DNA of 64,000 bases from Chlorokybus atmophyticus. Its lineage: Eukaryota > Plantae > Mesostigma and Chlorokybus algae. The first letter of the stretch is position 1. Each line of letters opens with the position of its first letter. This document shows positions 18,501 through 64,000 of the stretch, in pieces. Position numbers and translations under genes: made by a program. The notes under the pieces were generated by a model. The model was not told the DNA's origin and did not search any database. It worked only from the letters and a program-made list of their open reading frames with translations. Location of the stretch: NCBI GenBank assembly GCA_009103225.1, contig RHPI01002910.1, positions 480,103-544,102 on the forward strand. The letters are read 5' to 3'.

Positions 18501-18591
18501 TAGTAAGCTAGTGGTGGGCTTTTTACTGCAGCTGTACGCAAGGGCGTATTTGAGACGGCATCAGACATCAGAGAAAGCACATCATCTGTAG
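15563..18591 (+). CDS. TAPT1: TAPT1/EMP65/POD1-family ER membrane protein; multi-exon
   Basis: RHRVYNTILHVPRRVE, RPSADQISDLLCF, DISFLYHWIKGQEYIKLYVIYNMFE, AITLNVAINSHSNALLTVLISNNFVEIKGNVFKK, DAVERFHL, VDIVKHAFLANFN, LNFVPLAPAC. The start codon at 15563 is the best guess. Confidence 0.92.
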
Positions 18592-22088: not shown

Positions 22089-24406
22089 ATGTTGGGTTCC
22101 TGGGCGGAGCGGTTGTTCTATTCTGCGAGTGTTCGTGCTGCACAAGGGGCAGGAGCAGGAGCTGGAGCTGGGGACGGAGGAGGAGGAGGTGGTGGTAGTG
22201 CAGGAGGGCATGACCATGCAGGAGGTGGGCCGGTTTCCCGAACACCCCCACCTCCATTGACGCCCGCCGAATTGGAGCAGTACCTCACTGCCCTTACAGC
22301 GGAGCGCAGCAAAGTTGAGGTCTTCAAGCGGGAGTTGCCCTGCTGCACACAGTTGCTTGATGGAGGTAGGCCCTTAAGCTGCATGCATAGTGTCCGGTCC
22401 ATGCTGGTGCTAGCATACAGCACCCATGTGCATAAGACCAGCATCATGCGGCTATTTGTGTAGGGTCGTTGCTATGTGCTGATGCTGCGGCCAGCATTGT
22501 CTGTCTACCACATCTCTCGCTGCTATGTTCCGGCTTGATATGCTCATGGTATTGTCGAATGTTGACCATCATCCGGCTTGAGATGCTCATGGCATTGTTG
22601 AATGTTGACCATCAATACGGTCAGCTGGAGCACTGCTTACGTTTGCTGCTGCTCTAGCCCTAAGTTGGCATGTGTGCTTTGCGGCATCTTGGGTGTGCGT
22701 GGAATGCTTCCACAAAGTTGCATGGCTGGTCGGCACGTTGTTGCCTTTTCTGTAGTGGTTTGTTGCTTGATGCCACGCCAATATACGTCTTATGTTGTGC
22801 AGCCATTGCTTACATCCAAACAGTTGTTGCGAGTCAGCCACAGCAGGCTGAGGCGCCAAGCACTCAGGAGGCTGATGCCGATCAGCCATCATCATCAACC
22901 CCGTCTGTAGAGACAACATCGCCACCAGTAGCTCCCCTTCCCCCACCTCCCTTGTTTTCACCTCCCTGGCCGCACCTGCCATGGCCAGGAGCACAGCCAT
23001 GGGCACCAAATGCACAGATGTGGGGAGCCAGCAAGGATGGTATGGCGATTGCAAAAGGACAGCAGGTACCCTTCTCGGCACCGGTGGCGATACCAGCGGT
23101 GGCGATGAAGACAGAACAAACCTCACCTGTGCATGTCTCTCAATCGTACTCCCCTCCACGGATGCCATCCCCTGTACATGCCTCTCCACCTGTTGTAGTG
23201 CCGCAGCCGCATCGCCCTGCCGTGGTTTTGGCTTCTCACGGCGGTGCCTTCACGCCTTTTCTCCCAGCACGCGAGCCTGATCCCAACAGGTCTCCACCAC
23301 GGTCGCAGTCACAAGAGCACGCCAGCACCTCTCGGCCATCAGCAGAGGCGTGTCGCACAAGCCATTCGAAAGAAACTCGCTCCGATTCGGATGGTGACAA
23401 GGGTGCACCTCGCAAAGCACGGCGCTGCTGGAATACAGAGCTTCACAGGCGCTTTGTCGATGCACTTGAACAGTTGGGCGGCTGCCATAGTAAGTGTCAA
23501 CGTCATAACATAGCAATGCTGGCATGCATGCGACCAAAATACAGCGCACTGACCATGTGTCAATGGCAGCGGCAACACCAAAGCAGATACGGGAGTTGAT
23601 GCTTGTGCCTGGCCTCACAAATGATGAAGTGAAGAGTCACTTACAGGTATGCAATGCCATCCAAGGAGCTGCTTGCATGGCATTGAGCAGAAGTAAAGCC
23701 CCATTGTCCAATGCAGAAATACCGACTGCACTTGCGGCGGCCGCAGTCTTCTCCTCAGCCACGCGGACCACCTGAGCCTTGGCAAATGCCTTCTGGTGCC
23801 ATGCCTCCGATGATGCACCCTGGCATGCTGCCGGGGATGATCCCCGCAATGACAGCGCACATGCAGGACCCGCAGAGCTACCAGGCTGCCGTAGAGGCAT
23901 GGTATGCTGCCATGGCTGTCAGGTCTGCTTACCACAACATGCACCCGCACTCTGGCAACTCGCAGTACCTGAAGCTTTTTATGTGCACACGTCGTTGTTC
24001 TTAGTGTTGTGCATGAGGACTCGCATGTAGCAGCATGTTGCTCGGCAGGTGTTTGCATGCATAGTAGGAACGATGTTGATGCAAGCGCAGTATGAGTGCT
24101 TAAACGTTGCTGTCATTGAACGTGACCACCGATAACCACCACCAACAACAAATCTGTCCTCTTAACAGGCACGATCCTAGTGGTGTCACAACTCTATCGC
24201 TTGGCAGAGGGCAAGCGCCTCCCCAGCCAACATCCTCCGCGCCTCTGATGCAAGAAACCAACCCCGAGTACTCCGGTGACGCTTCCGCTCAAGCTGCGGC
24301 GCCAGCAAGCGCACCTGGCGCGCCCTGGCCAACCCCTTCTGGTTCCCACCCGATGGATGGATCCACAAGCGGCAGTTCAATGTCTGATGCTGCGGGATCC
24401 GGCTGA
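22089..24406 (+). CDS. GARP (G2-like MYB) transcription factor, HRS1/HHO/NIGT1 subfamily; multi-exon
   Basis: N-terminal coiled coil [25 protein letters not shown] is typical of HRS1/HHO. DNA-binding domain [26 protein letters not shown]|[25 protein letters not shown]|KYRLH is assembled across GT-AG introns. The 5' end is uncertain (an upstream ATG exists at 21463). Confidence 0.92.
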
Positions 24407-25341: not shown

Positions 25342-27962
25342 TCAAGAAGAAAAGCGGCTTGCGAGCTGCCCGGTCAAAGCCTTCACTTGCTTAAGCTGCT
25401 GCGAGGTGACCTCAAAGTCCTTCACCAGGAAGTAGTCTGGCATGCCTGCATTGTCAGAACAGAGTCACAAGCATACATGGACACAGGCATATACACACAA
25501 CGACAATCTGATGCAATTGCATGCGTGTCCACAGCGATAGCGTGTACACTACCTTCCGACGTGTTTATCTGGATGCCACCGAGTAACGCAATGGGACCAC
25601 TGAAATCCGAAGCACGGATTATGTCCAGCAGTTCCTACAACACCACATGAGAGGCTTGTCAACATTACCAACGAGTGCGAGTATACACCAATATGTGAAG
25701 TGTACAACATATGTGTCAATGATCATGCTACTTCCCACCCCTGACCTGTCGTATCTTCTCGTACACCACGTACGGCAGCTCCGCCATCGGGCTGTCCACC
25801 TCCTTCAGCCTTGGCAGGCTGCTCTTGACGGTCTCATACACCACTCTGACAAAACATTAACAAACCCACGAGTTGAACGCCCATCACACCTCGAGTACAC
25901 GCTACCTTCACATCACACACTGTGAACACAATGGACGCAAACTGTCTGGCAAAATAGTGGCCCCAATAATGTTGTGAGCAGACTCATCACACACGCATAA
26001 CATCTCCTCTCCTCGCTCTCCTCACTCCACCCCTTTTCTCACACCCTCCTAGGTACCCTCTATTCACGTTTTTGGATGAAGCGCATGTGCGCGCATGCAG
26101 GCACTTGAACATGGAGAAACAGCGCAAGCACGCGCGCGTATGTGGTGTGTGTGTGTGGAGCCTGCACATGCGCGCGCGTGCGCGCGTGCGCGTAAGCGCA
26201 CATGCGCGTGTGTGGTGAAGTGTGTGCACCGCGCACTCGTGCTCTCACATGCACACTCGTGCCCGTACACACGCGTGCGCGCGCATGTGTCTACGTACAC
26301 AACAACAAGCACACAACACCAACAACAGAACGCCCAAAGCCACTCACTTCTGTTGGTAGTCCCCCTCGCCCTCAAACCCCTTCCCCGCAACGCAGCTCCC
26401 GTACGCCGCGATGGCCGACCCGCACGCCGCACTCACTCCACTCTGCCCGTGCCTTAGCAACTTCCCGACACGGCCATCTCTATCAATCCCGACGTGCGGC
26501 GAGTACAACACAAGCAATCTCCCGTCGTCGCAGGCGTGGTGAGAGAACGCGCCGAAACCGGTGCGGCCGACGAAGGGGAGGCCGGTCAAACCGCCGAGAG
26601 AGAAGTTCTCGTGCAACCTGAGGGTGATTTTGGGTAGGTGTTGGGGTGTTAAGTTGCAAGGGTTGAGAGGGTGGGTGACCAACCCCCCCCCCCCCCCNNN
26701 NNNNNNNNNNNNNNNNNNNNNNNNNNNNNNNNNNNNNNNNNNNNNNNNNNNNNNNNNNNNNNNNNNNNNNNNNNNNNNNNNNNNNNNNNNNNNNNNNNNN
26801 CCCCCCCACCCCACCCCCCCTCTCCTCAATAGCAACCCGATAGCAACCCAACAACAGGGTTGATGTTGGTCACTCACAAAACCCACCCCAACATGGGTGG
26901 GTTTGTGACCAACATCAACCTTGTTACTGGGTTGTTGTTGGGCTGATGCTGGGTTGCTATTGGGTTGTTGTGTCAAAAGTGCGTGCGTGCGTGCGTGCGA
27001 GAGAATGAAATGGAGGGCTTACATGAGATGGTTCCATTGGTTGATGCTGTTGATCTCGTCGGGGCACGTGCTGTTTCCCAAGAGGGTGTTTTCTGGGGTG
27101 AAGCCCTCCTTTGCAAGGATGTCGTACGCTATGTCCCTCACCTGTGCATGCGCAAGGGCTAGAGAAGTTACTCCCTCACGTCGGTGATGCATTGGGTGTC
27201 AGGCATGCAGCGTGTGTTTGTCGCGCGGATACACACACATCCACACTAACCACCTGTGTGCAAATGCTTGTGTGTGCGTGCGCGTGCGCGTGTGTTTGTC
27301 TCTGTGTGTCGGGTGCGCGTGCGTGTGCATGCGTCAATGACTACCGATACATTTCAGAGACCAACAGCTACATATTGTGTGAGCCACTCCAGCTAAAACA
27401 GCCAACCTGGTGCAGCTCTCTGGCGCCAGCGAAGTACGTGGCAATCGACAGCAGGGTGGCTGACGGCAACGAGGCGAGGGGTTGTTGTTTCTTGTTGTTT
27501 GGGTGTTGTTCGATAGCACCAGAGCGCGATAAACCCTCTGCACTGACCTGAATCAAACAAGAGAGAGAACAAACACAGTCAAGCAGCTTGCGTTGCCATT
27601 GCCATTGCGTGCCGGATGGGTTCAGACACAGCAAGCGTGTCATGTTGCCATACCCCGTTCTGAACAATTTGTTCAACCGCAAGCTGCTGCATTTTGCTTG
27701 TTACGTCAGCTGATGGCAAGGTTGCCTCCATGTTGCCTGCACCCAGACAATAAACAGTCTATACGTGTGCATGCGCGTGACAAGTAAGTACGTGTGCATG
27801 TGTGCACGTGTAGAGAAGTACGCAGCAGCAGAGTAACGATGCCACAAACACAAGTCGTCTGGCTCCAACACCATACGCAAGTGCAGACCAAGCCAGCACA
27901 CGCTCTCTCCGTATGCCAAACATGCATGCCCTGTATGTACTTACAATATACTGATTCGACAT
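25342..27962 (-). CDS. LCIB: LCIB/LCIC-family (beta-carbonic-anhydrase-like) protein; multi-exon, 5' end uncertain
   Basis: Exons give FTPENTLLGNSTCPDEIN, FSLGGLTGLPFVGRTGFGAFSHH, LYSPHVGID..G.VG...RHGQSGVSAACGSAIAAY, SPMAELPYVVYE, IALLGGIQINT and DYFLVKDFEV...SRFSS*. Zn ligands Cys, His and Cys are retained. Confidence 0.9.
26698..26800. other. Assembly gap (103 N) flanked by poly-C, inside an LCIB intron
   Basis: Run of n; homopolymer C on both sides. Confidence 0.99.
26827..26962. repeat. Imperfect palindrome of about 135 bp (MITE-like fold-back) in an LCIB intron
   Basis: CAATAGCAACCC (26827) pairs with GGGTTGCTATTG (ends 26962); GGTTGATGTTGGTCAC pairs with GTGACCAACATCAACC; CACAAAACCCACC pairs with GGTGGGTTTGTG. 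Confidence 0.7.
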
Positions 27963-36773: not shown

Positions 36774-39728
36774 CTATGTTGTGGACTTCCACTTGGCCAA
36801 TGTGCGATGCAGGATGGTAGGAGCGTCCGTAAACAACATGTCCACACCACACAATAGTGCCTCCACCTGTGCACTCCACTAGTTTAGCACTAAGCATGTA
36901 AAGTCGGCAGTGCACTTGGCACCACAATACACCCGACTGATCTTTGCGTATGGAACACGGTTACACAAAGGGATGCTGATCAATTGAAATGGCTGATATA
37001 TGAGGGTGAGCGTGTGCGTGCGTGCACACATACACCCGAACCCATCATCCGGTTGCAGTGCTACTAGTTGGAAAAAGGTACCCTACCTGATTTTCCTCAT
37101 GCGAAAGCCACGGACCAAATGTCGCCACAAGTCTCTGCAAGAAGGGTAAACTCAGTATAGTGCAATGGCCACAAAGTGCAGTCACACTGGCTTAAGACAC
37201 ACTGCAGTTAAAATGTGAGGTCAGTGTACACATACTGTGCTCACACGCACCTGCCGTTCTTTGAAAGCTTGAACCAGCTGCTTGGACAGCACCTTCTGTC
37301 CCCATGGGGCCACCGCGGTCAGGCCAAGGATCTCATGACGCAGACGGTACGCCCAGAACAGACCCAACCGCCACATCGTATAGCTGGGGACAAGGAAAAT
37401 AAGTGCTATCAGTCACCAGTCCTTCTCTGATGGCACTCAGATCTCGAGTGTGGGAGTGCATGCAGCATATCCAACGACATCATACGTGTCGTTGGATGTA
37501 TGCACGCACGCATGCTTCTCTGCATGCTTGCTTGGATGCAGATGTGTGAATGGGCAATGCATGCGTGATGCATGCATGCATATGTGTTAAATGCATGCTG
37601 CACACATGCATGTATGCTTACCTGCATGCAAGTAGGCATACATGCATTGGAGTCTGTGCCTGTACTTGTACATTTGTATGTGTGTTTATTAATGTATGCA
37701 GTGTTGGACCCCACCACCATCCCGCACATGTGAATCATAGTCCGGAAGTCGGGCGTGCAAGGGATTTCCGCAGGCTTGAGTTTCAACATCTGCACAGTAT
37801 ACAATCACATGCATGCGGCATGCCACAGCAGCACAAGCCATGCACGCAAATGACAATAGGACAGAAACAACAATAATGCAATCACTCGTCTCCACTCACC
37901 AACTGGTTGATAGCGGGAGAGACGGCACCCACAATGCATCTGTAAGTTAGATTCCTTGCACGGATCTCCTGTTGACAATAGAAGTTAACCTTTTCGATCA
38001 CTTGAAAGGCATCCAAAGCAAGGGATACTTAGAAAAGCGTGGAGAGACCACACGTAGCAAAGGTGTTTTAAGCTGACCTGGAAAATCAGCGGGACTACGT
38101 TTATGGCTTTCAGGTCAAAGTACAGAACGAGGCCTTCTTTAGACGCGAATTCATCCAGAACCTGCGCATTTACATTGCGCAGGTCAGTAACTGAACACCA
38201 AGACGCGTTTGCGGGTGTCTGTGTGTGCGGGTGTCTGCGTGTGCGTGTGCGGGCGTGTGTCTGCATGCGCACACATGTATGGAGACCTGTGTGCATTGGT
38301 AAGAGAGTGCACACGGGCAGGTGTATGTGCGTACACGCGCGCCTGCCTGCCCATGCGCACGCATACGCATAGAAGTGCGTGCCTCACCTCGTTCAACAGA
38401 GGGACCTTCAGGCCTTTGCCTCTGTACGGGAACGTCTTGCCGCCATCTGGACTGAAGTGGTAACCCGCATCAAGCGCTCTGCACGCAAGTGGAGTGCTTC
38501 AGTAACAAACACTTCACTGGATCACTCCAACAACAATCCCTTTTGGACCACACTCTTCACTGGACTCGCACGCATCTCAAGTGTCACTCACTCACTCGCT
38601 AGCGTACAAGTGCAGTAACACACAACAACATGCATGATCGACATGTTGGGAATGACAGACTTGTGCATTGTGTGTTGACAAGTCACACGTGTTGTGCCAT
38701 ACCTGATCTCTTGAAGGCTCAGTGTTGCAACGGGTCCGCTCCCGTCAGTAGTGGAGTCCACCACCGCATCGTGCATGCACACCTGCATAATGACATTCTC
38801 AATGTATTGGACTCGAGTGAATCCAACTTACGCACAAACACTCCATCCATCATCATTGTTGCCTACGATGTGGCCGTCTTTGGTGAGTTGCACGTCGAAC
38901 TCCAGCACGTTCGTGCGTCTGCCGCTCCCGCCTTCGCCGTTCACGGCGTGGCGGTATGCCACCATCGTGTTCTGCGGACGCTCCAGCAACCCACCTCTGC
39001 ACGTGTGTATGTAAATATGTGCATGTGCGTATGCGTGTGCACGTGCAGGCGCATGTGTGTGTGGCCATGTGAACGATTACATACACAACGAACACACGCA
39101 CGCGCACCATGACAATCACACACTGTTGGTGTGCAGTACAGCATGTGAGTGAACACTACACGTACTGCATTACATCTACAACAACAGCTTTGAAGAACGT
39201 GCTTGCCCTTTGTGTAGAGGGTGAGTCTCACCCTTACCGAGTCATAGAGAACACGCACTACAAGAGCTAAAGATAGTCACTAAGTGTACGGCATTCACCC
39301 ACCACAGAAGCCAGCAGCAGCGCACACGTTGACAAAGAGTGAATGAGAGGGTGAAGATTTGAAGCAAGGAATGGATAGATAGAAGTGCAGAGTGAGTGAG
39401 TGCAGATACCAATGCATGTTTCAGTGTGTGAATGATTCTCAAAGACGAGTGAGTGAATAAGTCGGTGTGCAAGTCACTCAGTCAGAGACTGACTCGCACA
39501 TCATTGCATTCACTGGTGTGAATCAAACTGTTCTTACCTGTGGCTAGCATGTACGGGCATTGTGAGTAGGTTCACAACAGGGTGTGTTTCTGGGCGTGCG
39601 GGTGGCACATCCCTGCGGAGGTACTTCTCGTACGCCGCCTTCGCCCCCGCCGCCGCCGCCACCCCCGCCACCACCCTCACGCCCAACATCGCCAACCACC
39701 ACCACCACTGCCACTGCCACACCAGCAT
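36774..39728 (-). CDS. Glycerophosphodiester phosphodiesterase (GDPD family) with N-terminal hydrophobic segment; multi-exon
   Basis: SHR|GGLLERPQNTMVAY, VLEFDVQLTKDGHI|VCMHD, LDAGYHFSPDGGKTFPYRGKGLKVPLLNE, YFDLK, GVDMLFTDAP...STT*. The start could also be 39689. Confidence 0.92.
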
Positions 39729-39925: not shown

Positions 39926-39970
39926 CAGCTTAGCTCAGCTTAGCTTAGCTGAACTCAGCTTAACTCAGCT
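39926..39970. repeat. Pentamer array (NARCT)9 in the GDPD/UFC1 divergent promoter
   Basis: cagct tagct cagct tagct tagct gaact cagct taact cagct. Confidence 0.8.
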
Positions 39971-40090
39971 CAGAGCAGTGGTGTCGTCGTTGTTGTCGGC
40001 GGCGGCGGCGGCGGCGCAGTTGTCACCCCTCTCATCCTGCTCGTCCTCTTCCTTGTCCTCGTCCTCGTCATTGTCCTTGTCGTTGTCCAC

Positions 40091-41634
40091 ATGGACGGTT
40101 GGGACGCCTCGACTCGGTCGGCTGTGCAGCGGATACCGCTGCTCAGGACCAGGGCTGGTCCCAGGGACGGCGAGGAGTGGGTGAAGAGGCTCAAGGAGGA
40201 GTACCAGGCGCTGATCGGATATGTCAAAATGAATAAGGAGAATGACTCGGACTGGTTCACCATAGCGTCTAACCCACAAGTGAGGACGTGGGATGGAGAG
40301 TGTTTGCTGTGGGTGTGGATGTGGGTGTGGGTGTGGTTGATGTTGTTGCTGCTGTTATCTATACTGGTGTTGTGCTGTTTTTCTCAGTAGTAGTGGTAGC
40401 AGTAGTTGTAGTAATTGCTGTTGCTGTGCATGTACGATACTACACCAGCAATGGCATGCCATGCAATGCATGCAAAGCTGCTGACGCCGACGCTTGCGCT
40501 GCTTATAACTTGTTTTATTACTCGGCAATGCAATGCTGTGTTACACGACACAGTACACAATACATTGCACCGCACGCAGGACTGCTGTTGTTTCTGCCTG
40601 TGTTCCGTCAAGCCTGTTTGGAATGTTAAGCACACAAGCTGTGACTCCCTAAGCTCAAGGGCTGGTAAATGATAGAGAACACAAGCTTAGAGACTTACTT
40701 GTTGTGTGTTCAAGTTACTGCCGAGAGTTGTCAGCTTAGTTCATGCACAAAGTCATCATTACCGCCACATCGGTAACTGTGTGGCATTCCTACTGCAACA
40801 CCCTCTTGCCTGCTATTCATACACGCCAACATCAACATCAAACCATCACCACATCAACAGCCACAACAACAACCACAATGTCAACACCAGGGCACGCACT
40901 GGAGCGGCAAGTGTTGGTACGTCCACAACCTCCTTCGCTACGAGTTCGACCTGCAGTTTGACATCCCCGTCACGTATCCCGCCACCGCGCCCGAGATCGA
41001 GCTGCCCGAACTCGACGGCAAGACCGCTAAGGTGTGCATTGCATGGAGTGGGGTTGTGCTCTGTTGTTGTGTCCGTGTGCTGGTGTTGATAGCTGTAAGA
41101 AGCTCATCCTCCGCGTTCCTGTGTGTACTTGAAACGTGTGCGTGCACGTGTGCAGATGTATCGCGGCGGGAAGATCTGCTTGACCATTCATTTCAAGCCC
41201 TTGTGGTCAAAAAACAGGTGCATTAGCGTGTATGCGTGAGCGTGTTTCCGTTCCCGTGAACGTCAGCGCGCGTGTGGGCTCGCGCAGGCGTGTGCGTGAG
41301 AGCGCACACGTGTGTGCATGTGTGCATGCGAACGTGTACAAGTGGGGTATGCTGCTGTGCCGGCATGCATGGTGTGTGTGTGTCTGTGTGTGTACACACG
41401 CGCACACCGCCGCGTGCGGGACTTCAGCAGATTACATTACACGCACTTGTTGACTGGACACACACACACACACATCTATTGCTCTGTTGTTAATTTTGCA
41501 GCCCGCACTTTGGAGTAGCGCACGCTTTGTGTTTAGGGCTCGCGCCCTGGATGGCAGCTGAAATCCCTCATCTCGTCGAGACTGGCGTTATTCAACACAA
41601 AGACGCATCATCTGCGTCTTCTTCCAAGTCATGA
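40091..41634 (+). CDS. UFC1: Ubiquitin-fold modifier-conjugating enzyme 1 (UFM1 E2); 4 exons
   Basis: [114 protein letters not shown]. Confidence 0.97.
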
Positions 41635-42782
41635 TGTTTGCCGAAAGGAGACCGATGTTGCATTTTTACCGTAAGCCGGTAGATGTATAGAAGACGACTA
41701 TTGTTTGCTCCTAGATTGGGAACTGAGTCAGCGCAGAGTCGCCTGCAGGAGGCTCATATCAGATGTATGTGGTTGACAACATTCCTGCAAGCCAGATAGG
41801 ATGACTTGGATCAACAGGTGAGTCATCGTACTAGTGTTTTTGCAGACGCGATGGTGCAATAGCATGCACCTTTTGCTGCTGCCTGCTATACAGGTGGCTT
41901 GGCCTATCTACTGTTCTTTTCCATATCACGCCCACCACCACTGCTTGCAATCGCATCTGATGGGCTGTGGTTGTGTGGTTGGCCTTGAACCTCTAGTCTT
42001 ACCCCCAAGCTGGTCCGTGCTTGCCTGCTGTGCTTGATGCTATCTGCATGCGTGTGTGCTACTGCGGGTGCCACAGGGCGATTAAGCTCTATGTGTTCCA
42101 GGTGAGTGAGGTGCTAAATGTGCAATAGCGTGTAGCTGATGAATAGCGGCCATACATGCCAAATTCTCAACACAAAGGGTACATGGGCATGGTCACAGCG
42201 CATGCCGAGTTCGTAAGCACCTATGGCCACGCCACAGTATCCCATAACCAGTTGAATTGGGCTACAGTCAGTGGGTAAAAAGTGTCGATGCTGCATTACC
42301 TAGCCCGGTGGTGGTATGATGAATAGAATGCAGGATTGTGGTGTGGTGTGATGGCATAATGACAATAAATTGCTTGCTTAGACTCACGAGCCCTCTCATG
42401 CACATGCAGAACAGCACCTCACATATTGTAACCCCACAGGCCAAAGCATGGGCTAACTGTTGCACTATCATGTGCAAGTACAGTGGCACGACCAGCAGAG
42501 AAACTAGCATCTACAACAACAACAACCAATGCAAGCTATTACGTACAGCAAGGGCAACTGTGCAGTGGTAGGCACCAAGCAGTGTTAGTGTTAGACACAA
42601 CGGCAAGCAAGCAAGTAGCAAGCAGGACCACAAGTATCATGTGGTGGAGAGCATGCATGTGCACCTTTATGTGTGAAAGTGTGGGCATTTGCATACATGT
42701 GTGTTGGTGAGAAAAATCTTGAGCAACAATTCATGCAGCTCTACACGTTCAAACATGCCCAGATTCTACCTACAACCCGAGC

Positions 42783-45276
<2,494 letters not shown>

Positions 45277-52204: not shown

Positions 52205-53519
52205 TGTCAGCTGCCGGCGACCAAGTGTAGTGACGGCGTAAGACCAGCATTGCACGATTATTTGCCAGATTATGGGATTGCCCAATTCATGGATGTATCT
52301 CCTCCGCTCCGGGTCTGCAGTGTCGGTCACCTCAAATCTCCGCCATGACTTGTCTGCGACAGTCATACCAACAAGGCATTAATCACGATATAGATAGTTC
52401 AAGTTGAGCCTGCACCAGGCTAGAATAGTGCCACTGACTTACTTTGGAGCGCGTTGCGCATCTAGGCTTTTTGGGTCTCGAGGTCCATTAGGGCGTCGAT
52501 GTGCCTGATTGAATCGGTTACAATAGGGGAGATGAGTACGTGTGTATGGAGGCTGAGTAAGAAGGCAGTGTTGCATAGCAAATATGGTGGTGAGGGACCC
52601 AACTCACTTGCGCTTGTTGCTGTTAAACAGTGTCCATTTGTACTCCTTCTCAAGGACATGCTTGATCTTGGTGACGTTCTCAAACCGTACCTGCGTGGCT
52701 TTCTTCAAGGCGACACTCCAGTGGAAGGGGCACTCCTTGGGAGTCCAGTACACCTTATACAACTTGGCCGCATCGGCCTCGTCGTCATGGTTGAAGCCAA
52801 CTACCTGTCATGGGCAGGTTGGTCAGTGTCACGGTGCAGTGCGGTCATGATCATTCACAGCACCTTACACATGACGTTACGAATAGTGTATTCGTAACGT
52901 CATGCGAGCTTTGTCCTCCTTGGGATAAATGTGGCTCTCTACCAGTGGCCGTTTATGATTTCAACGACGGCATCTCGCAAATGCTGTCCACAGAAGAACA
53001 ATCCGTTACACACATACACACAGTGTCACAGTGTCACATAATGCTTACCTCGTTGCAAATCTTTCACTTGCTTGGGGAAGGGGTGCTGACGGCCGTGGTT
53101 GCCACGTCACGGCTAAATGCGTTTGGGTTGGGGGTTCCAATCGACCCTCTGCAAGCACAACCACATGAGTCATGCTGTCAGCCATACAAGATGCAACCCT
53201 CACAGTTGTGCAAGAAGAACAACGTGCACAATGTATTCAGAACGCATGCAGTGAGTCACTGTGCTAGTCATGAAAGAAGCAAGCATCCAAGTTAGAAATT
53301 GAGCAAGAAGCAACGTGCACAGTGCATCAAGAACGCATGCAATCTAGCTTGCCCTTGCGACTGCGGTGTCAGGTGGAGTTGTTGTGATGTGCTGGGCGTT
53401 AGCGCGGGGTCTTTCTGCAATTGGTTGGCGACGGTTGCTTGGTTGAACACTGGGGGCAATGTGGTCAACTTGCGCCGACCTACACGACGAGGTGCACCTA
53501 CGGATGGACCACGAGGCAT
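52205..53519 (-). pseudogene. 5' part of the unknown multi-exon gene (copy B; paralog of 1-1300)
   Basis: Exon 52804-52608 VVGFNHDDEADAAKLYKVYWTPKECPFHWSVALKKATQVRFENVTKIKHVLEKEYKWTLFNSNKRK is open here, but neighbouring exons carry stops or frameshifts. Putative start MPRGPSVGAPRRVGRRK at 53519. Confidence 0.6.
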
Positions 53520-53859: not shown

Positions 53860-56593
53860 TCGATGAGCCCGAATGGGAGTTAGCGTGCACTCACCCAAAC
53901 ACGCTTCATCGATGGCCGGATGATGGCACGCAGGAGCAGCAGGTCGATGACGGGTCGAATGTCAGGCATAGTGAGCCTGGGTTCGACTAGGAGGCGGAGG
54001 ACCAAAAGTCAGAGGAGGCGGCGGCGGCGGCGTGGCACATCTTGCGAGAAGTTGTGGTCGTAAGAGTTCAAGCAGCGAAGCCAGCTACTATATTGCGCCA
54101 CGTCATGGCAGGCGTCAGCAATGGGGCTGTTTAACATGCATCACCAACATTGGACAAACTAGCAGGCAAGCTATTTACGACCATCTTCACACAGAGAGCT
54201 GCTTGGTGGCTCGCTTTCTGCAACAAGGAGTGGATCATGAGCTGCAGTCCTTGGAGCCCCTTGTTGGAACCATGCGGGACCAATTGCGACTGTCGGAACA
54301 AGCACAAAGGAATGCACAGGTACGCTCAACAGTTACATGCATTACCTTGCAAGAGCCATTTGTTTTTGGTACGGTCCATGTGATACATGTAGCGTGGCTG
54401 CAGGCCTCCACTATTCACCTATACCCACCCCACAGTTAAGCCAACGTTGCGGAAGCCAGAGCATATGGACAGAGCTGGGCGGCGGTATGTTGTTGCCAAT
54501 CTCGCTGTACATGTTGACTGCATGCACCTCCAATGCATGCCTACCTTTGCATGCTAAAATGTGCGTGAGCGAGCGAAGTTTCGCGCGCGCGCGCTGAACG
54601 AAGTAGGCTGGGTTTGAGCACAGGAGCGCGTGGCCATTTGTTCGGCACTCAACTCGTACTGCATCAACCAGCAATGACGCAGTCCATGCAATCATTTGTG
54701 CATCAACCAGCAATGCCGCAGGTGATTGTTCGAAGCATCCAGCTGATGACGGTGTGACGCAGTTGACTATTGCAATTGCAGTGTCGCAAGCATGCAGCTA
54801 ACCCACATGTGATTGGTTGACATCACCACAGTGCACTAGGTCCTGTTGGAGCTCCTATGCAAGCCTGTATTCAATCCAATCAACTGGTCCTTCAATCCCA
54901 CTTGATGATGGGCGCGGCGGCAATGCGGCATCAGTTTAACATGCATGTTGGCATGTTGAATCCCGACATGTCCATTGGGGCAGTGGCGCATGATGTGCCC
55001 ATGGCTCACGAGCTCCGTGACGAGTCTGCGATCGAGGGTGGCGAGGAGAGTGCACCCAATACCACCTTGTTAGCCCCCATGGCTTCCCCTGCTCCATGCA
55101 GCCCACGGGCCATTGAGGTAAGTCGCTGTCTTTTATGCTCGTGCCTTAGTAATAATGCGTCAGGCACTGCATAAGCTTATATTCGTCCTTTGCAACATTG
55201 TGAACCATCATATTCTGGGTCCTGTATACAGCCCCCCTTGCTGCACAAGTGGTCTCACCTGCCGCTCCTGCTCCCCTCGCAGCCAGAGCACAACCACCTT
55301 CCGCGGCACCAGTCCTTCATACACTGCCATCTCCTCCACGAGCAGCACCGGTGATTGCGGGGCAACAATCCTTCTTGCCGCCACCGGCGAGACCACAGCA
55401 CAATGCAACAACCGATGTGGCTTCTGCACCTACCTTACCCCACCAGCTGCAAGTTGAAGCCGGCAGTCTGCCCCAAACTCAGGTACTTTATCAGTCACTG
55501 TGACTCTTACCGTCCAGAATTGGACACACCATTTAAGTGCTGTATGCGCATGCAGCAGGGGTCACCACCTGCCAGCGAGTCATCAGAGGAGCTGACCGCA
55601 ACCCACATACGGCCATCAGTCATGCTAGGTGGCCAGCTCACCTCATGGGACCACTTCAATGCGCCAACGGATGGTAATTGCTTCTACCTTTGTGTATTTC
55701 GCGCCAGGCCATCCATAGCGCAAAGTATCCTGGATGATCACAAGTGCCCCAGCTCGAGCAGATTTTGGGCCATGCTGGACACCATGGACGACGACGGCAG
55801 GGGGGACACTCTCCGCAAAATTACCGCCAAGGCTGTCGATGCAGGCATGGTGAGCAGAATTCTAGACTTCTGCAGAGCCACTGGTGCCGCGGGAGAGATG
55901 GCGCAGTATTACGTCAAACTGCCTGCGACCATGGTGGCTGATGTCAATTGCAACATTGACCTAGCCATGGCCAAGGTGCGACAGATCGTGCGGAGAAAAG
56001 ATGTGTACGTCGAGCACCTGCAGATGACCATGTTTGCCAACAAGCTGGGCTTGTTGATTGGCTGCGTGACCGTTCAGCGCGAGCATGGGGAGTGGATGCC
56101 ATGATCCGGCAGCGCAGTTTGGGTTGGAAATAAAGAAGCCCCCAACTCAGTCCTGGTGGTGGGCAACACTGCTTCTGATGAGCCAGAAGCACACTTTTGG
56201 CTCCTCAAGCCTGCTGGCACCGAATAGTGGTCGTGGCCTATGCATGAAGTGCCACCGGAGGTAACACACCTGATCGAAGAATGGCGGAATGGCTCCATCT
56301 TCAGAAGTGTCAGCTTGCGTCTCAGCTGCAACTTGCTTGAGTTGCTGTTGGCCTTAAAGAGGGTGTCGAAGACCTCCCACGCCTCACATCCAGTCTTGCA
56401 ATCCGCAATAAGAGGGAGATGGAAGTCTTTGACGTGTAAGCCTATCAGCGCAAAAGCTGATTGTGAGTGCGTTGTCCAGGTACCAGTGTCACCTGTTCTT
56501 GGCCGTAATGATGCGGAGGAGATGGGATCGACAAAACTTCAGAGCTTCTTGCGGATCAGCACCAACTTCATCTTCAGCGACCATGAGGCGTAG
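53860..56593 (+). pseudogene. Spliced pseudogene ending in an OTU-like cysteine protease domain
   Basis: NAPTDGNCFYL (DGNC at 55670-55681) and EAHFWLL (His at 56192) are in one frame, which runs to 56593 through in-frame TGA (56102) and TAG (56225). Upstream exon-like blocks at 53860-54060 (one TAG) and about 54165-54320. Confidence 0.65.
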
Positions 56594-56923
56594 TTGTGCA
56601 GATCAAGAGACACGATGGGCATCCTTCCTGTGTCAGCTATTGCTTGCTACACAATAGTACAACTCACCCTCTCCCGAAAAACACTCTACTAGTAGGCGCC
56701 TATGCTCAACACTTTCTCTCACTAGCACAAGCGATCACACAAGCGAGTGTGGGCCCATAACCTGTTGAGAACTAGTGATGCGCCTAGTGTGTGTGTATTT
56801 GCCTCCTACATACAAGTGTGCACACTAAAGACAAGTGCAGCAAGCACACCAATTATAGGGACAATGTGCGACCCACTATTTTAAGCAGTATACAGTATCT
56901 CATATACTATGCTACTAAGCACT

Positions 56924-57055
56924 AGTCAACTCTAGTCAACTTTGGTCAAAGTCAACACTAGTCAACACTAGTCAATGGTCAAAGTCAATGGTCAAAGTCA
57001 AAGTTGATCATGACCATAACTGCCGTAACTCCCGTAACTCTCGTAACTCCTGTAA
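56924..57055. repeat. Array of 10 RGTCAA (reverse W-box core) motifs followed by (GTAACT) repeats
   Basis: RGTCAA at 56924, 56934, 56944, 56950, 56960, 56970, 56977, 56983, 56990 and 56996; then ataactgccgtaactcccgtaactctcgtaactcctgtaatt (9-bp period). Confidence 0.8.
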
Positions 57056-57793
57056 TTATAAAGGTTAAGCTGATCGTACCAACTACATGTAGGCGCCGCC
57101 TATACATGTTCTTTCATCCAGCTATACCATCTAATCGGAGACGGGCTTCACATTGCCTGTTGCTACTTTCATTTGCATCGCTATAATTGCCTTACTTGAC
57201 AGAGTTCGAAAACGTCACTTCATTGACACTCGTCTCGCTAATGAGATCCTGGCATGTTGTGTATGTTAGCAAGTTGTGGTGCCTACACTTAAATTCATTG
57301 ATGACCTTCAACACGACTCACCACATGTATATACTTGGTGGCACATGCTTTTGCTGCTTTGTTATATTTGTTGGCACACTGGTCATATGCTCACATCCGC
57401 AGCAATCAATCGGTAATATTAAAAGATGCTAAGATTGCACGGGTCATAATCAACAGCATACCTACTATGTGCAGCCATCACTCATTAGACTTCAACTCCC
57501 ATTAGCCTTCAACCAGCACAGCTCCACCTTTGGGCGGTAGCAGCGAACCCTTGTGACAGCAATAGCCGATGAGAAGCACGGTCCGTTGCCCGTGGTCCTT
57601 GTCATGCCATCTACCCTCGCATGCCAGTTCTTCTCAAGCATGCCTACACCCAGCCCCACGCCAGGGCTACCAGCATGAAGACCGCGCGAGCCCCAGCCTA
57701 CTGCTAGCTACTGTATCACTCATGTAGCCTGTAGCTAGGGCTACTTTATAGACCTGTCTGTAGGGACCGCGCGTAGCTGATCAGTTGCAAGTC

Positions 57794-58192
57794 TGTTAAG
57801 AACACATGTGCTATATCAAGTCTTAGGAGATTTCCGAAATAGCATGAGGCCTCGATGTGACCGTTGGCCTAGTGCCCGCGTGGCACTGCACAGTCATGAT
57901 TTGACATGTATAAGTAGGAAGTCACGTCACCAGACTGGCTGGTGACACTGTAAGTGAGTACTGTGAGTACTAGGAGTACTAAGAAGTAAAGACTCTGTTT
58001 CTAAAGAGCTTGTGAAGCGACTTGAACTGGAAGCACGCTGCCCCGGTTGCCAAGAACTCCTTTACTGCGTGAGACACGGTGCATGCTCTTGTGCGCTGTG
58101 CCTGCCATTGCTGTGAGCTTGACGGTGGTGTGTTGTTTCAGTAGTTAGGGTGTTGTATCCACGTGTTGCACACTCATTCACCTCACTTAACA
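57794..58192 (+). repeat. Putative 5' LTR (399 bp)
   Basis: Begins TGTTAAG (57794) and ends CTTAACA (58192), a perfect 7-bp terminal inverted repeat with TG...CA ends. Contains TATAAG at about 57908 and is followed by a PBS-like gTGTATCA. The 3' LTR is not in the window. Confidence 0.5.
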
Positions 58193-58463
58193 GTGTATCA
58201 TTCTATCCACTCATGCAAAGAACTGTGTCCACAGCACTACCTATCGTAGTGGCTTGTTGACTTACAGTGTCACCCTCTTTGCACAAGTGAGTGTGTTGCA
58301 ATCTGCATCAGATAGTGCAGTCTGCACCCAGGGATACATCGCTGGGCATTCGTTATCATTGTCATCACATAGTGCGTACAAGCACTAGTGTGTTGGGTGG
58401 TAACAGCATCAGGATAGACGGTAGAGCACAAGCACTCTACCCTTTCACCTCTGGACCAGCTGT

Positions 58464-61400
58464 ATGAGCAGGCCCACCCCGTTCTCCCCAATAGACGAGG
58501 GTGACCTCAGCAGTTGGAGCCCAACCACCAATCTCACTTACGAGCGGACCAGTGACGGAAGCATCGACCGCAGCAGCAGAGGCTCGCGCTCCATCTCCAG
58601 CTTCACCCCGCTCCACTCTACTCCTCGTCATTCAGCTTCTCCACTATCATCGGACAGCGACGACAACGAGATGGAATCTTTCAGTTCAACCACATCCCTG
58701 CGCTTCTCCGGACGTGCCGGCACCACCTCGCTGGATGAGTTCATCATCAAGTTCCACTCCTAGATGCGGCAGCAAGCACTGAAGAACAAAGACTGGTCAG
58801 ATGAGATCTCTTTCCACATTGCTGCTCAGTATCTTGATCATGAAGCACACGATGTCTGGAAGTCCGTTGCTGAACTGCATCGAGTAGACGGCTATGGCGA
58901 GCTTGCCAGCACCATAGCATCTGCAGCCCTGCACCGTCCAGCAGGTGTCATTCCACCTGCCACTTCAGTTGCAGTAACAGGCTTGACCATAGCTGCAGCT
59001 CTCAAGCAGGCAGAGGAGGAGGAACCAGAGTTGGTACTTGTCAACTCGACCCCTGCAGAAGTTGAGTCCAAGGAGGCCACACGTCAAGCCCGCATCCTTG
59101 ACCGTTCTGCCAGCATCATTGAGGAACAAAGAGCTGTACAGCAAGCGGCAGCCGCAGAGTGGGGTACTCCTCTACCTCCAGCAACACCTGGCTCTCGTGC
59201 AGGAGGCAGTGCTTTCACCCTCGGGTCAGTAGCACTGCGCGCACCAGCCATCACCGTAGGTGCTGCCATCTCTGATTCTCCACTCAAGGACCTGTACGCT
59301 GCCCTGCGCCGTACCTTCCCTCCTCAGACCACCAGCAAGGTTGAGGAGCTGAGACGCTTCCGACGCAAGCCCAATGAGGATCCCCTCCGCTTGTACTCCA
59401 GACTGGAAGGTCTGCTGAAGGACACTGACTACAAGATTGTCAGTGAGGAGGCTGCTGCAGTGATATACGTCAATGAGTTGGATGCTGCTCTGAGCGAGTC
59501 GACACGCCTGACTCTGAACTACAGCAGGCCCCTTGGCTACACCCTCAAAGAAGCCTTCGAGACTGCACAAGCCATCCACAAGCGCTTGGTGTATGAGAAG
59601 GCAGTGCTGGACACCAACCGCAGCGCCGTACGGCCTGTAGTCAGCACGACAACTGAGCCTCCTCGCCGCGACCGTGGCCGGGACGCTCCACCAGCACGCG
59701 ACAAAGGGAAACGGTCAGCTCATGCTGCACTTGCTGCCCCTGTGCTGTGTCATCGCTGTGGACGGCATGGGCACTACCAAAAGGAGTGCACCGAAGAATA
59801 CTCAACTTTGGTTTGCGACCACTGTCACAAGACTGGTCATTTGGAGTCAGTCTGCTGGCTCAAGTTCCCAGAGTTGAGGCCCGCCAACAGCTACAACCAC
59901 AACTACTCCGGTGGCTACAACAGCAACAACACTGGAGGCCACACTGGCAACAACTTCAGTGGCTACAACAGCAACAACACTGGAGGCCACACTGGCAACC
60001 ACTTCAGTGGCTACAATAGCAACAACACTGGAGCCCACAACAGCAACAACGCTGGTGGCAGTAACAACAACAACAACGCCAGTGTTCGCAAGGAAGAGCA
60101 AGGCTACAGGGGGAAGAACAGACCTCCTCAGCGTAAGGGACCAGAGACACGTCCGCGCGCTGCTGCTGTTGCCGCCAAGGCTTCAGCCAACCCACCAGCT
60201 GATGACCATATGGCAGCCCTCATGGCGCGTATGGCACGCTTGGAGGAAGACAAGGAGCAGGACTACCGCGCCTGCTACGCTGCCCGATGGGCGCTGATGG
60301 CTGCAAAACGCGAGAGAGACAGGAACACTCCGTCCCGCGTGCAACCATCACGACGAGCACGAGGGGAAGCTGCAACAACATCAGCAGGCACCTCCTCCGA
60401 AGCCACCAGTGGTGCTGCCTCCGCAGCAACAGCCACACCGGCTACAACGTCGACTCCACCAACGTCAGCAGCACCCACTCCAGTTGCACCACAACCTGGT
60501 ACACCGATGGACACCGGGACGCCGACACTGGTGAGCACAATGGCAACAGCCGTCATCTCTACCGAATCTGCACCAGTGGGCGGTGCACTTCCCACTGCAG
60601 CAGTGCCTCTGTCCGTAGGCGTTGAGACAACTCTCGCACCACCGACCGGTACCGTCGCAACTGCCACAATTGCCATCGTCGAGCCCGCTGTCTCTGCAGC
60701 GACGCGCGCAGCCACTCTGCCCGCTCTCGACGTCACTCAGGCTGTCCCAACTGGTCAGCAAGCTGAGCGAGCATGGGAAACCATCCTGCGCGGAGCAGAC
60801 CCCACTACCATCGCCTTCGGTCGGGGGGGGGAGCGCACCACGCGTGTCGCCCGCGATGATCGCGTCTTCCCGCTACCAGAGGTTCACACCCTTCCAGCAC
60901 TCACTCAACACCAGTTAGAAGATGAGATCCTTGCTGGCACTGCACCTCCGATGCGTGACAGGGTGTTTTTGATCAGCTACAGCCCACCTGTAGTGTTGGA
61001 GTTGGCTCTGCAGCTGTTCTGGGCGTTGCACAACAACATGCAGACCGCCCCGCGCCAGCCTGCACGCATGCCAACCACCACCTTTGAACCCAGCCCGTTG
61101 GACACGTATCGGGACCGCCGAGACGCCGTCCAGCAGCGCATCGCCGACGCAGCCGACCTGCCTTTGGGCACTGATGAAGCACTCGGACCTCCTACAACCG
61201 CTCGTCTTCATCAGCGCTACCACGCACTGGAACAAGCATATCATTGGCGACAGGATCAAGCTGCCGCCATTGCTGCACGTGAACAAGCTCTTGAAGCTAC
61301 ACGTGCACCAATACCTCAGTCACCAACTGCTGGTCCATCCTCCAGCACCACTCCGCTCTTCGTCGAGACCAACTCTGACCAAGCGAGGGCGTTGGCTCAA

Positions 61401-64000
61401 CAAACCAGGGGGGTGATCGCCCCGTTGCTGCCTGCGCTGGTGGAGGATCTACCTGAGGACCAAAGGGAGCCAGGGAGGGGCTACCTTACACCACAAGGGT
61501 GTACACAAAGAGATGGAGCAGGACTGGTTGGAGAGCAACAACTACGCACTGCTCTGTTGCGACAAGCAACCATGCTGCATCGGCAAGAAGGCATCGGACT
61601 GCGGCAGATGCTTGGGATGCGAGACAGTGGCAACGCGGCACGCGCACGGTTAGTGACGTGGCTGGTTACCAACCATCCCGCAGTCCCGTTGTTCGCTTTC
61701 GGCGCCAGAATAGCGTGGGTGGACGCATTCCTTCGCTCCATACGGCAAGCCTATGATGAAGTGGCTTCCGCCGCCACTGACACTCTGGAGGGAGCTCTGG
61801 AGGCTATACTGAGTTTGCCAGGGGTGGAGGCAGGACGTCAGCGCAGGCGCATCGCCACTGCTTACGAGCAGCATGTCCAACAGCCAGAGACCCGGCTCAC
61901 TGTACGCACACGAGCAATAACAGTGCTGGAAGTGGGAGTGGTCAACGGCAGATGGGATGCTTACATGGCAGGGATCCTCAGGGTGCCCACCATCACCCAC
62001 GACATGAGAGCGCGGCTCCTACGCGCAGTGTACCTGCAGACCATGCCTCAGAACCATCGCTATATAGATGCGGACAACGATGCGACGGCGACATGGGAAG
62101 GTAAACTAGTCAGACAGGCAGCCCATGCTGTGCGATGGACCTATGCAGAGGAGCAGGCTGCACGAGAGGCAGTCCCGCAAACACCAGGTCCTCCAGGGTT
62201 CCCGCCACAGCCACTGGCCACTCCTCCTGGCATGACAACAGCTGCACAGAGGGTCAACCCTCCTGCACCTCCACTTGGACAGGTTGCAGCAGCACCTCCA
62301 GTGCCTAGGCCACCACGCGTGTACCAGCAACCGCGACAAGGACGGTTTGGACAAAGCCGAGGACAAGGAGGCCCACAAGATCCATCAGGCAGAGGAGCCC
62401 TGGCTACCCTACGGTCAGGCCCCGCAGATGAGAATAAAGCAACAGTCTCTCCACGCAAGAGGTTCCGTCGCTTCAAGAGGCTGCGCATCAACGCCAATGC
62501 AGCCATGATCGCCAACCAAGGCAAGCACGTGACCGTCAATGGGCGGGCACCCAAACGCGTGATGCTGGACACTGGAGCACAGCCTGTCATCATTGGGCGC
62601 TACCTCGCACGAGATCTCGGCATCACCAGCGCTGAGCTGCTTCCCTGTCCCTATCAGCTGGACACCGCAACCGGCAACCGTGACAAGGTACTCGGCCTTA
62701 CCAAGCAGGCTGTGAGCATCCGCCTCACCGGACTAAACCCTTCCCACAGCACCGAGATTGTACAAAGGTGTGTGGTCACCGATGCCGGGTCCTTTGACCT
62801 ACTGTTGGGACAGGACTGCAACTTCCCTGTCGGCATGGGGCTGGACTGCTGGACTGAGCAGGCATGGTTTCGACCACATTGGGATGAGGACGATGGAGAG
62901 GAGCAGGGATTCCTACCTCTCGAACTGGTGGCCAAGGACCGCTCGCAACGAAGATCGGCTGCAGCAGCCACCTACAGTCTTACAAAAAGCTCACGTGTGC
63001 CTCGTGCGCGAACGCAGCCAAGGACAACTGCAACGAGCTCGAGCCCGAGCCTAAACGCTGAAGAGGACTCCCCTACACCGTACGATGAGTCTCAAGAGAC
63101 TGTCACCAAAGAAGTGGCCTTTCAGGAGCCATCCGAGCGTCGCTGGAGCGCACAAGTAGCAGCACACATGCTGCTGACCAGGCCTCAGCTCACTGCACAC
63201 TTCCCTGCCTACAAAGACCAGGCTACAGTACAGGAGCAGTACCACATAGCTACGGGAGTTGTGGAGTTCCACATGTTCCGCCGACAACAAGGCATCACCG
63301 TGCTGGAGCTGTTCGGAGGCATAGGCAGTGGGCTTGCGGTTGTCCTCAACACAGGAACAACAGTCACCAAGCACCTCTACTGTGACCCTGACCCTCATGC
63401 ACAGGAGGCTCTGAGCCATCATTTACGACAGCTGCACCAGCGCTACCCGCAGCAGCTACCACTGTCGGCACTGCAAGGAAGCCAGAAGGCTCTACCGCAG
63501 GACATCCGCTGGATTACCAAGGATCACCTGCAGGCAGTCGGCAACATTGACCTGCTGATAGCAGGGTGGGAGTGTCAAGGGCACTCCAGGGCAGGCAGAG
63601 GCCAAGGGCTCTCGGATCCTCGCTCACAGCTGTTCTGGGAGCTAATGAGAGTCATCAAACTCCTACAGATCAGTCAGATCGCTAGGCCCTTGGGGTACAT
63701 CATCGAGAATGTGCACTCCGAGGATGACAAGCGGCACCACGTCGCCAAGGCCTATCGGCAAGTATGCTCCTTGCTGGGGCATCCTCTCAAAATCAACGCC
63801 GCGCGTCATGGATCTCGTGCACACCGCGTCCGCGCCAAGTGGACCAACCTGGCCATTGTGGAAGACCTGTTTCTGGCAGAGTACCTATACAGCAATCGGC
63901 CACGAAATCTCGTCGTCGATGACATCCTGGACCCTGGACGCACAGCGCAACCAGTCACACGCCTTGACCACCACCACTTCTACCAGTGCAACCAGCCTGG
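58464..64000 (+). CDS. Gag-protease-DNMT polyprotein frame (over 1800 codons, one in-frame TAG at 58761-58763, open at the window end)
   Basis: All codons start at positions divisible by 3. CHRCGRHGHYQKEC (59748), CDHCHKTGHLESVC (59814), VMLDTGAQPVIIG (Asp at 62568) ...DLLLG, VLELFGGIG (63300), DLLIAGWECQGHS (Cys at 63573), IIENV (Glu at 63705), SRAHRVRAKW. I read no stop from 58764 to 64000. Confidence 0.9.
59908..60040 (+). repeat. 48-bp in-frame tandem repeat encoding (S/G)GYNSNNTGGHTGN(N/H)F, about 2.7 copies
   Basis: gtggctacaacagcaacaacactggaggccacactggcaac repeated immediately after the second zinc knuckle. Confidence 0.85.

Follow-up and report, generated by a model that had tools for sequence, protein, structure and literature searches.

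The 3' end of the window, by which we mean the whole 64,000-nucleotide stretch of Chlorokybus atmophyticus DNA analysed here, carries the 5' part of a Ty3/Gypsy retrotransposon in which gag zinc knuckles, a retropepsin and a C5 DNA methyltransferase (DNMT) are joined in a single reading frame. With a confidence slightly better than even, we read it as a copy interrupted by a stop in gag, from a multicopy family whose DNMT3-type enzyme is likely freed by protease cleavage and then likely methylates cDNA of the element itself, and which is predicted to be self-primed and to integrate from a circle. We put at about even the chances of a wider proposal, in which Gypsy-DNMT3 elements form an old green-plant lineage (chlorophytes and streptophyte algae) with two domain orders that would be self-primed and would pass through an obligate two-LTR circle, opened at an LTR-internal palindrome and methylated by the DNMT.

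The gag-protease-DNMT reading frame

The frame comprises 1,745 codons without a stop and is still open at the window end (Table 1). The CCHC knuckles of gag, the protease with its LDTGA motif and the DNMT follow one another in it, as a preliminary description of this DNA had proposed. On recomputation no stop or frameshift lies between protease and DNMT, and the HMM search with PF00145 that was suggested there gave a match (E 2e-11). The same description placed the DNMT directly after the protease; the order holds, but the two are separated by a linker of 146 residues. In 71 type-A proteins (defined below), the window included, this linker ranges from 60 to 316 residues.

An in-frame stop at 58761–58763, overlooked in the preliminary description, immediately precedes the long frame. 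Similarity to the gag of relatives continues through this stop (E 1e-8); because it is found on both sides, the gag of the window copy is probably broken there and the copy defective in gag.

The spacer between knuckles and protease is the longest in the family, with 892 amino acids in the window versus 102–573 in 44 relatives. It finds no match among the 335 proteins compared, its Atlas matches are only to gag-like clusters (scores 0.90–0.91, a lead only), and its structure model has a pLDDT of 45. Asn/Gly-rich repeats with a 24-nt spacing occupy 59876–60075, just behind the zinc knuckles.

Table 1. Features of the element and of the neighbouring host genes in the window.
Feature	Position	Strand	Basis
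Predicted left copy of target-site duplication, TCCT	57596..57599	+	Inferred from 4-bp duplications of relatives; predicted far end ..ACA then TCCT
5' terminal repeat A1, begins TGTCATGCC as in relatives	57600..58262	+	9-mer match, contig ends, depth
TATA-like box (TATAAG)	57909..57914	+	32 nt upstream of predicted RNA start
Predicted RNA 5' end, the putative self-primer	57941..57955	+	Pairs perfectly with 58260-58274 over 15 nt
Predicted primer-binding site, self-priming type, at end of repeat A	58260..58274	+	15-nt complementarity
N-terminal gag segment, same frame, ended by in-frame stop	58425..58763	+	Frame reading, similarity to gag of relatives
Gag-protease-DNMT open frame	58764..63998	+	ORF, Pfam, motif reading
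Two CCHC zinc knuckles (nucleocapsid)	59748..59855 (knuckles at 59748, 59814)	+	Motif; PF00098 E 0.0045, under curated cut-off
Spacer between knuckles and protease	59904..62483	+	About 860-892 residues: Asn/Gly repeats, low-complexity tracts, helical region
Retropepsin protease, LDTGA at 62565	62529..62816	+	PF13650 E 2e-9, over curated cut-off
DNMT3-type C5 cytosine methyltransferase	63288..64000	+	PF00145 E 2e-11, over curated cut-off; window end cuts before motifs IX-X
Gemin6, intron-containing host gene	7949-8131	+	
DUF747, intron-containing host gene	17683-18588	+	
Presumably a GARP-like factor, intron-containing host gene	22664-24000	+	Motif
LCIB/C carbonic anhydrase, intron-containing host gene	27022-27198	-	
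GDPD, intron-containing host gene	38591-39076	-	
UFC1, intron-containing host gene	39953-41700	+	
Cupin/JmjC protein, intron-containing host gene	43559-43783	-	

The methyltransferase domain

The DNMT motifs occur in the unpermuted order I-IV-VI-VIII: LELFGGIG at 63303, WECQ with its Cys at 63573, ENV at 63705 and RAHRVR at 63816. The last three agree with the preliminary description, and motif I, given there as 63300, starts three nucleotides later. The catalytic Cys, the motif VI Glu, the Arg-x-Arg of motif VIII and the FxGxG of motif I that make up the C5 signature are all present, with Glu instead of Pro before the catalytic Cys. Motifs IX and X are found in the relatives, where they align to DNMT3A.

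A search of PDB sequences with the window domain places DNMT3A/B/C at the top (E 5e-8). The family profile matches DNMT3A with E 3e-24, compared with 9e-15 for the DRM type, which is the next family, and 7e-12 for M.HhaI. The structure model (pLDDT 65) gives only DNMT3 proteins as its top Foldseek matches (E 2e-9). Judged by these sequence, profile and fold searches, the window enzyme is of the DNMT3 type. In a quick tree of family and phage sequences, with no cellular DNMT3 among them, 58 family rows including K. nitens GAQ93235.1 and the window lie on one side versus ten phage DNMTs (SH-aLRT 100). In viral contigs, 79 loci resemble the DNMT, all weakly (E at least 2e-12; best segments 25–56% over short stretches), and none of them is a close viral donor; a search of viral contigs for relatives of the RT gave four pattern matches, none of them confirmed.

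The catalytic Cys is kept in 140 of 142 non-redundant family domains, and the motif VI Glu and the first Arg of motif VIII in all 142. The residue preceding the Cys is Glu in 86 of them, Pro in 46 and another residue in ten, and it changes state at least 13 times across the DNMT tree. The WEC of the window, which the preliminary description thought a possibly undescribed variant, thus carries the residue that family members most often have at this position, and the alternation of Glu and Pro is, as far as these alignments tell, a polymorphism of the family as a whole and no defect of the window copy. A literature search for Glu-Cys variants located nothing.

Differences between DNMT copies (runs X1–X3) point to purifying selection. 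Among the differences listed (40 of 123, subfamilies mixed, with one from an unrelated 44-nt match left out), 26 of 39 are synonymous versus 24% expected (p 2e-8), and none of the 39 falls in the codons of motif I, WECQ or ENV.

Domain orders, hosts and trees

The element is multicopy, with contigs of two studies matching it in many diverged pieces (307 and 449). A profile search for the family DNMT returned 375 protein clusters at E ≤ 1e-30, a number that does not support the rarity of the class stated in the preliminary description. Its members show two domain orders. In type A, the order of the window, protease is followed by DNMT and RT, while in type B the DNMT lies between RNase H and integrase. 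The 301 proteins with domain matches comprise 80 of type A, 129 of type B, 76 that are untypable and 16 without a DNMT; 80 metagenome loci divide into 58 of type A, 21 of type B and one untyped. The downstream order in relatives is DNMT-RT-RNase H-integrase-PHD, and 26 of the 58 type-A metagenome loci extend to integrase and the PHD finger. We infer from these relatives that RT, RNase H and integrase of the window element lie 3' of position 64000.

Named hosts of type A are Closterium, Mesostigma and Klebsormidium nitens, all of them streptophytes, and those of type B are the chlorophytes Haematococcus, Hariotina and Scenedesmus. The DNMTs closest to that of the window (46–48% identity) belong to type-A metagenome proteins. 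Type B forms one side of a branch both in the DNMT tree (108 rows, support 98, with the long-branch P0110 outside and no cellular DNMT3 included) and in the RT tree (73 rows, support 99, with a single DNMT-free outgroup). It is plausible that both orders descend from one capture, after which the domain moved.

P0110 is a Gypsy polyprotein with the order RT-RNase H-DNMT-PHD-integrase; it has long branches in both trees, falls outside types A and B by its RT, and is possibly a separate DNMT capture. P0108, a DNMT-RT protein of the family, has PF05869 in its precomputed Pfam list, which we take to be a Dam-type adenine methyltransferase and which would resemble the dual-methyltransferase EpiLTRs. 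A further family polyprotein, P0090, is filed at NCBI under a Minisyncoccia bacterium MAG and is likely to be algal DNA inside a bacterial bin.

Terminal repeats and predicted priming site

Long type-A loci have the layout A1-coding-G-rich PPT-B1-junction-A2-B2. Repeat A begins with TGTCATG and repeat B finishes with GACA, giving TG..CA ends; where B1 meets A2 the sequence is palindromic, typically ACGACA GC TGTCATG. The conventional 3' LTR expected in the preliminary description does not appear in these relatives, which carry split repeats and in which the PPT is followed by B and adjoins it, not the 5' repeat. The junction palindrome was found in 19 of the 80 loci (14 of type A, four of type B and one neighbouring element), thus in both architectures, and in all 19 it lies 3' of the coding region. 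Shuffled sequences give 0.1 matches to the junction pattern per set; the pattern was drawn from the same loci, so this excess is partly circular.

Six loci have both ends, and their target duplications are exact over 4 bp in two, match at three of four positions in three and are lacking in one (L007). The A2|B2 join is identical in seven of 13 loci and off by 1–3 nt in the other six, several of the 13 resembling one insertion seen twice. This variation may fit end-joining, and decay after insertion also.

One element without an RT match shares these ends. L040:1975-9320 starts with TGTCATGC, has the same junction palindrome and holds DNMT, integrase and PHD in one frame of 1,798 codons; a search of this interval for RT and RNase H gave no match. 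It is possibly an RT-less derivative that retains the methyltransferase. L042 is similar in appearance.

In the window, the 9-mer TGTCATGCC has its sole + strand match at 57600, where 1.8 matches are expected over both strands of 64 kb. A low-depth flank contig (run X2) stops at 57599, and depth increases in that bin. Three contigs of two studies diverge from the window sequence past 58262, which fits the expected A2|B2 join, A1 being the repeat visible in the window.

The 15-nt complementarity between the predicted RNA start and the site at the end of A1 was reached by one of 1000 shuffles and by none of 63 host tiles. Repeat A of L004 and L007 likewise ends 2–3 nt inside the primer complement, and an offset of 31–32 nt from TATA to start recurs in L004, L007, L010 and L032. 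When the site behind A1 was compared with the site 31–32 nt past the TATA box in 12 relatives, a match of 11–15 nt was present in four and one of 9 nt in another; the remaining seven have no such complementarity. The minimum-energy fold of 57935–58290 does not contain the primer pair (z -1.6). No tRNA gene was found in the window, and Rfam gave no match in 55000–64000. Two full LTRs, the 3' one after a PPT, and a tRNA primer site, as in conventional LTR elements, were not found, the window bearing on the 5' side of this comparison. At the level of sequence, the window thus shows the same 5' anatomy as its relatives, with the putative end, TATA box and self-primer match in place.

Proposed life cycle

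The following cycle would account for these ends. The RNA would begin in A1, and its first ∼15 nt would pair with the site behind A1 and serve as primer for the reverse transcriptase, as happens in Tf1. Extension of the plus strand from the PPT would then yield a linear cDNA with B-junction-A at each end, and joining of these ends would create the A|B join of a two-LTR circle. In the left repeat, integrase would cut the palindrome (..GACA GC TGTC..); cleavage after CA on each strand, and hence staggered, would leave two CA-3' ends with 2-nt overhangs, a normal integrase substrate, and insertion of the opened circle would give exactly A1-coding-B1-A2-B2. B2 can follow A2 only if the ends have been joined, and therefore a two-LTR circle or a dimer would be needed. 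The model also predicts the mirror layout, produced when the other junction is cut, and none of the 19 junctions lies 5' of the coding region. If true, this would be an LTR retrotransposon with integrase attachment sites away from the cDNA ends. For retroelements that use an integrase, circles are normally regarded as a dead end, so that a lineage built on circles would change the textbook cycle. Cleavage of a palindromic LTR-LTR junction by a retroviral integrase has been reported for foamy virus (PMC1180852).

As for the enzyme, the protease would free the DNMT within the particle, where it would methylate the cDNA or circle, probably at CG, so that a new insertion would arrive in the methylated host genome with its marks already in place. 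The circle route and the action of the DNMT on the element's own cDNA are both proposals. Related SymbioDIRS-Dnmt3 domains carry out de novo CG methylation in yeast, whereas the Klebsormidium domain did not (PMC5890265); the latter result and the CpG figures given below count against the proposed methylation.

An unlikely alternative is that the element is as described here and the DNMT acts at or after insertion, on the new copy or its flanks, either dampening the element or shielding the host. Type B places the DNMT directly before integrase and PHD (129 of the 301 proteins), the RT-less frame of L040 keeps precisely these three domains together, and self-restraint is among the options listed by de Mendoza et al. 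(PMC5890265). Against it, the type-A order, which is that of the window, puts RT and RNase H between DNMT and integrase.

We consider it quite improbable that the domain is no active 5mC writer and has been conserved because it binds DNA, is weakly active or acts as a decoy. The replacement of Pro by Glu in the Pro-Cys of 86 of the 142 domains would suit such a role, as would the inactivity of the Klebsormidium domain in yeast, which its authors judged inconclusive; human DNMT3B likewise failed in that assay (PMC5890265). CpG depletion is weak too: the observed/expected ratio is 0.66 in the element versus 0.74 in the window's host DNA, only five of 18 window-specific T/A sites are of the CpG type, and no clear footprint of self-methylation was seen by CpG depletion in the element. 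An active writer is favoured by the near-invariance of the active-site Cys, Glu and Arg while the residue before the Cys flips at least 13 times.

The ends themselves could in principle arise from ordinary LTR replication through linear cDNA, with the split repeats produced by tandem or nested insertions. The usual fate of retroviral circles speaks for this, and the window shows the 5' end only. We nevertheless regard it as very unlikely: independent insertions repeat the A-B-A-B arrangement with fixed lengths, A1 and B2 are the parts that border on the target duplication, the PPT stands before B1 rather than before A, the TG/CA palindrome lies inside the element, and the same layout has been reported in Klebsormidium (PMC5890265). 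A chimeric assembly, or chance read-through into a host DNMT gene, has a negligible likelihood as the source of the fusion and is already refuted by the relatives: 80 proteins share the order protease-DNMT-RT. The protease-DNMT linker is, moreover, spanned by contigs from two studies (62892–63389 and 62892–63453).

Relation to known elements

The element has its closest precedent in KnitGypsy-Dnmt3 of Klebsormidium nitens, for which a DNMT3 inside the Gypsy Pol and repeats like those of DIRS elements were described (de Mendoza et al. 2018, PMC5890265). From its sequence the window element is a new family of this known kind: in both, an intronless DNMT3-type domain with unpermuted motifs sits in a Gypsy Pol, and the split repeats are found in the relatives of the window element. 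The known Klebsormidium class invoked in the preliminary description thus stands, as GAQ93235.1 has the same order and aligns over the protease (29% identity) and the DNMT (36%). The two are separate families, likely of different hosts, and differ in the active site (WEC in the window, FPC in K. nitens) and in the spacer before the protease, which is 892 amino acids long compared with 284. The accessible text of the 2018 paper describes no self-primer, internal palindrome, target duplication or circle route for KnitGypsy (PMC5890265).

SymbioDIRS-Dnmt3 likewise has a DNMT3-type domain in Pol, two domain orders and split repeats, but differs in having a tyrosine recombinase instead of a DDE integrase, a dinoflagellate host and an independent capture (PMC5890265). 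DIRS, Ngaro or PAT identity of the present element is ruled out by the protease in the window and by the rve integrase and 4-bp duplications of the relatives. The EpiLTRs of Cymbomonas and Euglena are also LTR elements with a cytosine DNMT, one of them in a chlorophyte; their DNMT differs in being sister to DNMT4 and in being accompanied by DAM and a chromodomain (bioRxiv 10.64898/2026.05.21.726589). As in Tf1/Sushi and Tcn1, the predicted start of the RNA can pair with a site that follows the 5' repeat, but those elements have ordinary LTRs, a chromodomain and no DNMT (PMC7175516, PMC6317226). Other Gypsy elements that self-prime or carry a PHD finger have been described, and these have no DNMT (PMC6317226, PMC9940879). 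In foamy virus and HIV-1, integrase opens a palindromic 2-LTR junction to give processed ends, as proposed here (PMC1180852, PMC1905944); there the palindrome lies at the joined cDNA ends and serves a side route, whereas here it is fixed within the repeat and would be the normal route.

In its accessible parts, the 2026 preprint lists Gypsy-DNMT3 for streptophytes only (bioRxiv 10.64898/2026.05.21.726589), and the available text of PMC12344493 gives no additional hosts. Our literature search, which in part reached incomplete texts, found no Gypsy-DNMT3 outside Klebsormidium and streptophytes and nothing on split repeats in Gypsy elements, some of which Repbase, theses, subscription journals or supplements might cover; nor did the texts available hold an account of the chlorophyte form or the circle route, for which supplements and databases might be a source. 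What we have not found in print is the presence of the family in Closterium and Mesostigma, the chlorophyte form with its DNMT placed after RNase H and before integrase, and the arrangement A-coding-PPT-B-palindrome-A-B together with its TG..CA ends, its 4-bp target duplications and a self-primer resembling that of Tf1.

By itself, the DNMT fusion in the window extends a kind known since 2018 by a single host. The family is no Klebsormidium oddity and extends to chlorophytes, so that cultured Haematococcus, Scenedesmus and Closterium could serve to explore the benefit that a methyltransferase of its own brings to a transposon. The split-repeat layout, unexplained in the 2018 text as far as it is accessible, acquires a simple reading as integration from a circle that is cut internally.

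Surroundings of the element

Just upstream of the element, a Copia-type gag fragment lies on the minus strand at 56077–56538 (PF14223, E 4e-10), in a multicopy stretch that reaches about 57100. The remainder of the window holds the intron-containing host genes listed in Table 1; the LCIB among them points to algae with a carbon-concentrating mechanism. Two inverted copies of a ∼700-nt repeat, 87–95% alike, are found at 126–724 and 52245–52998.
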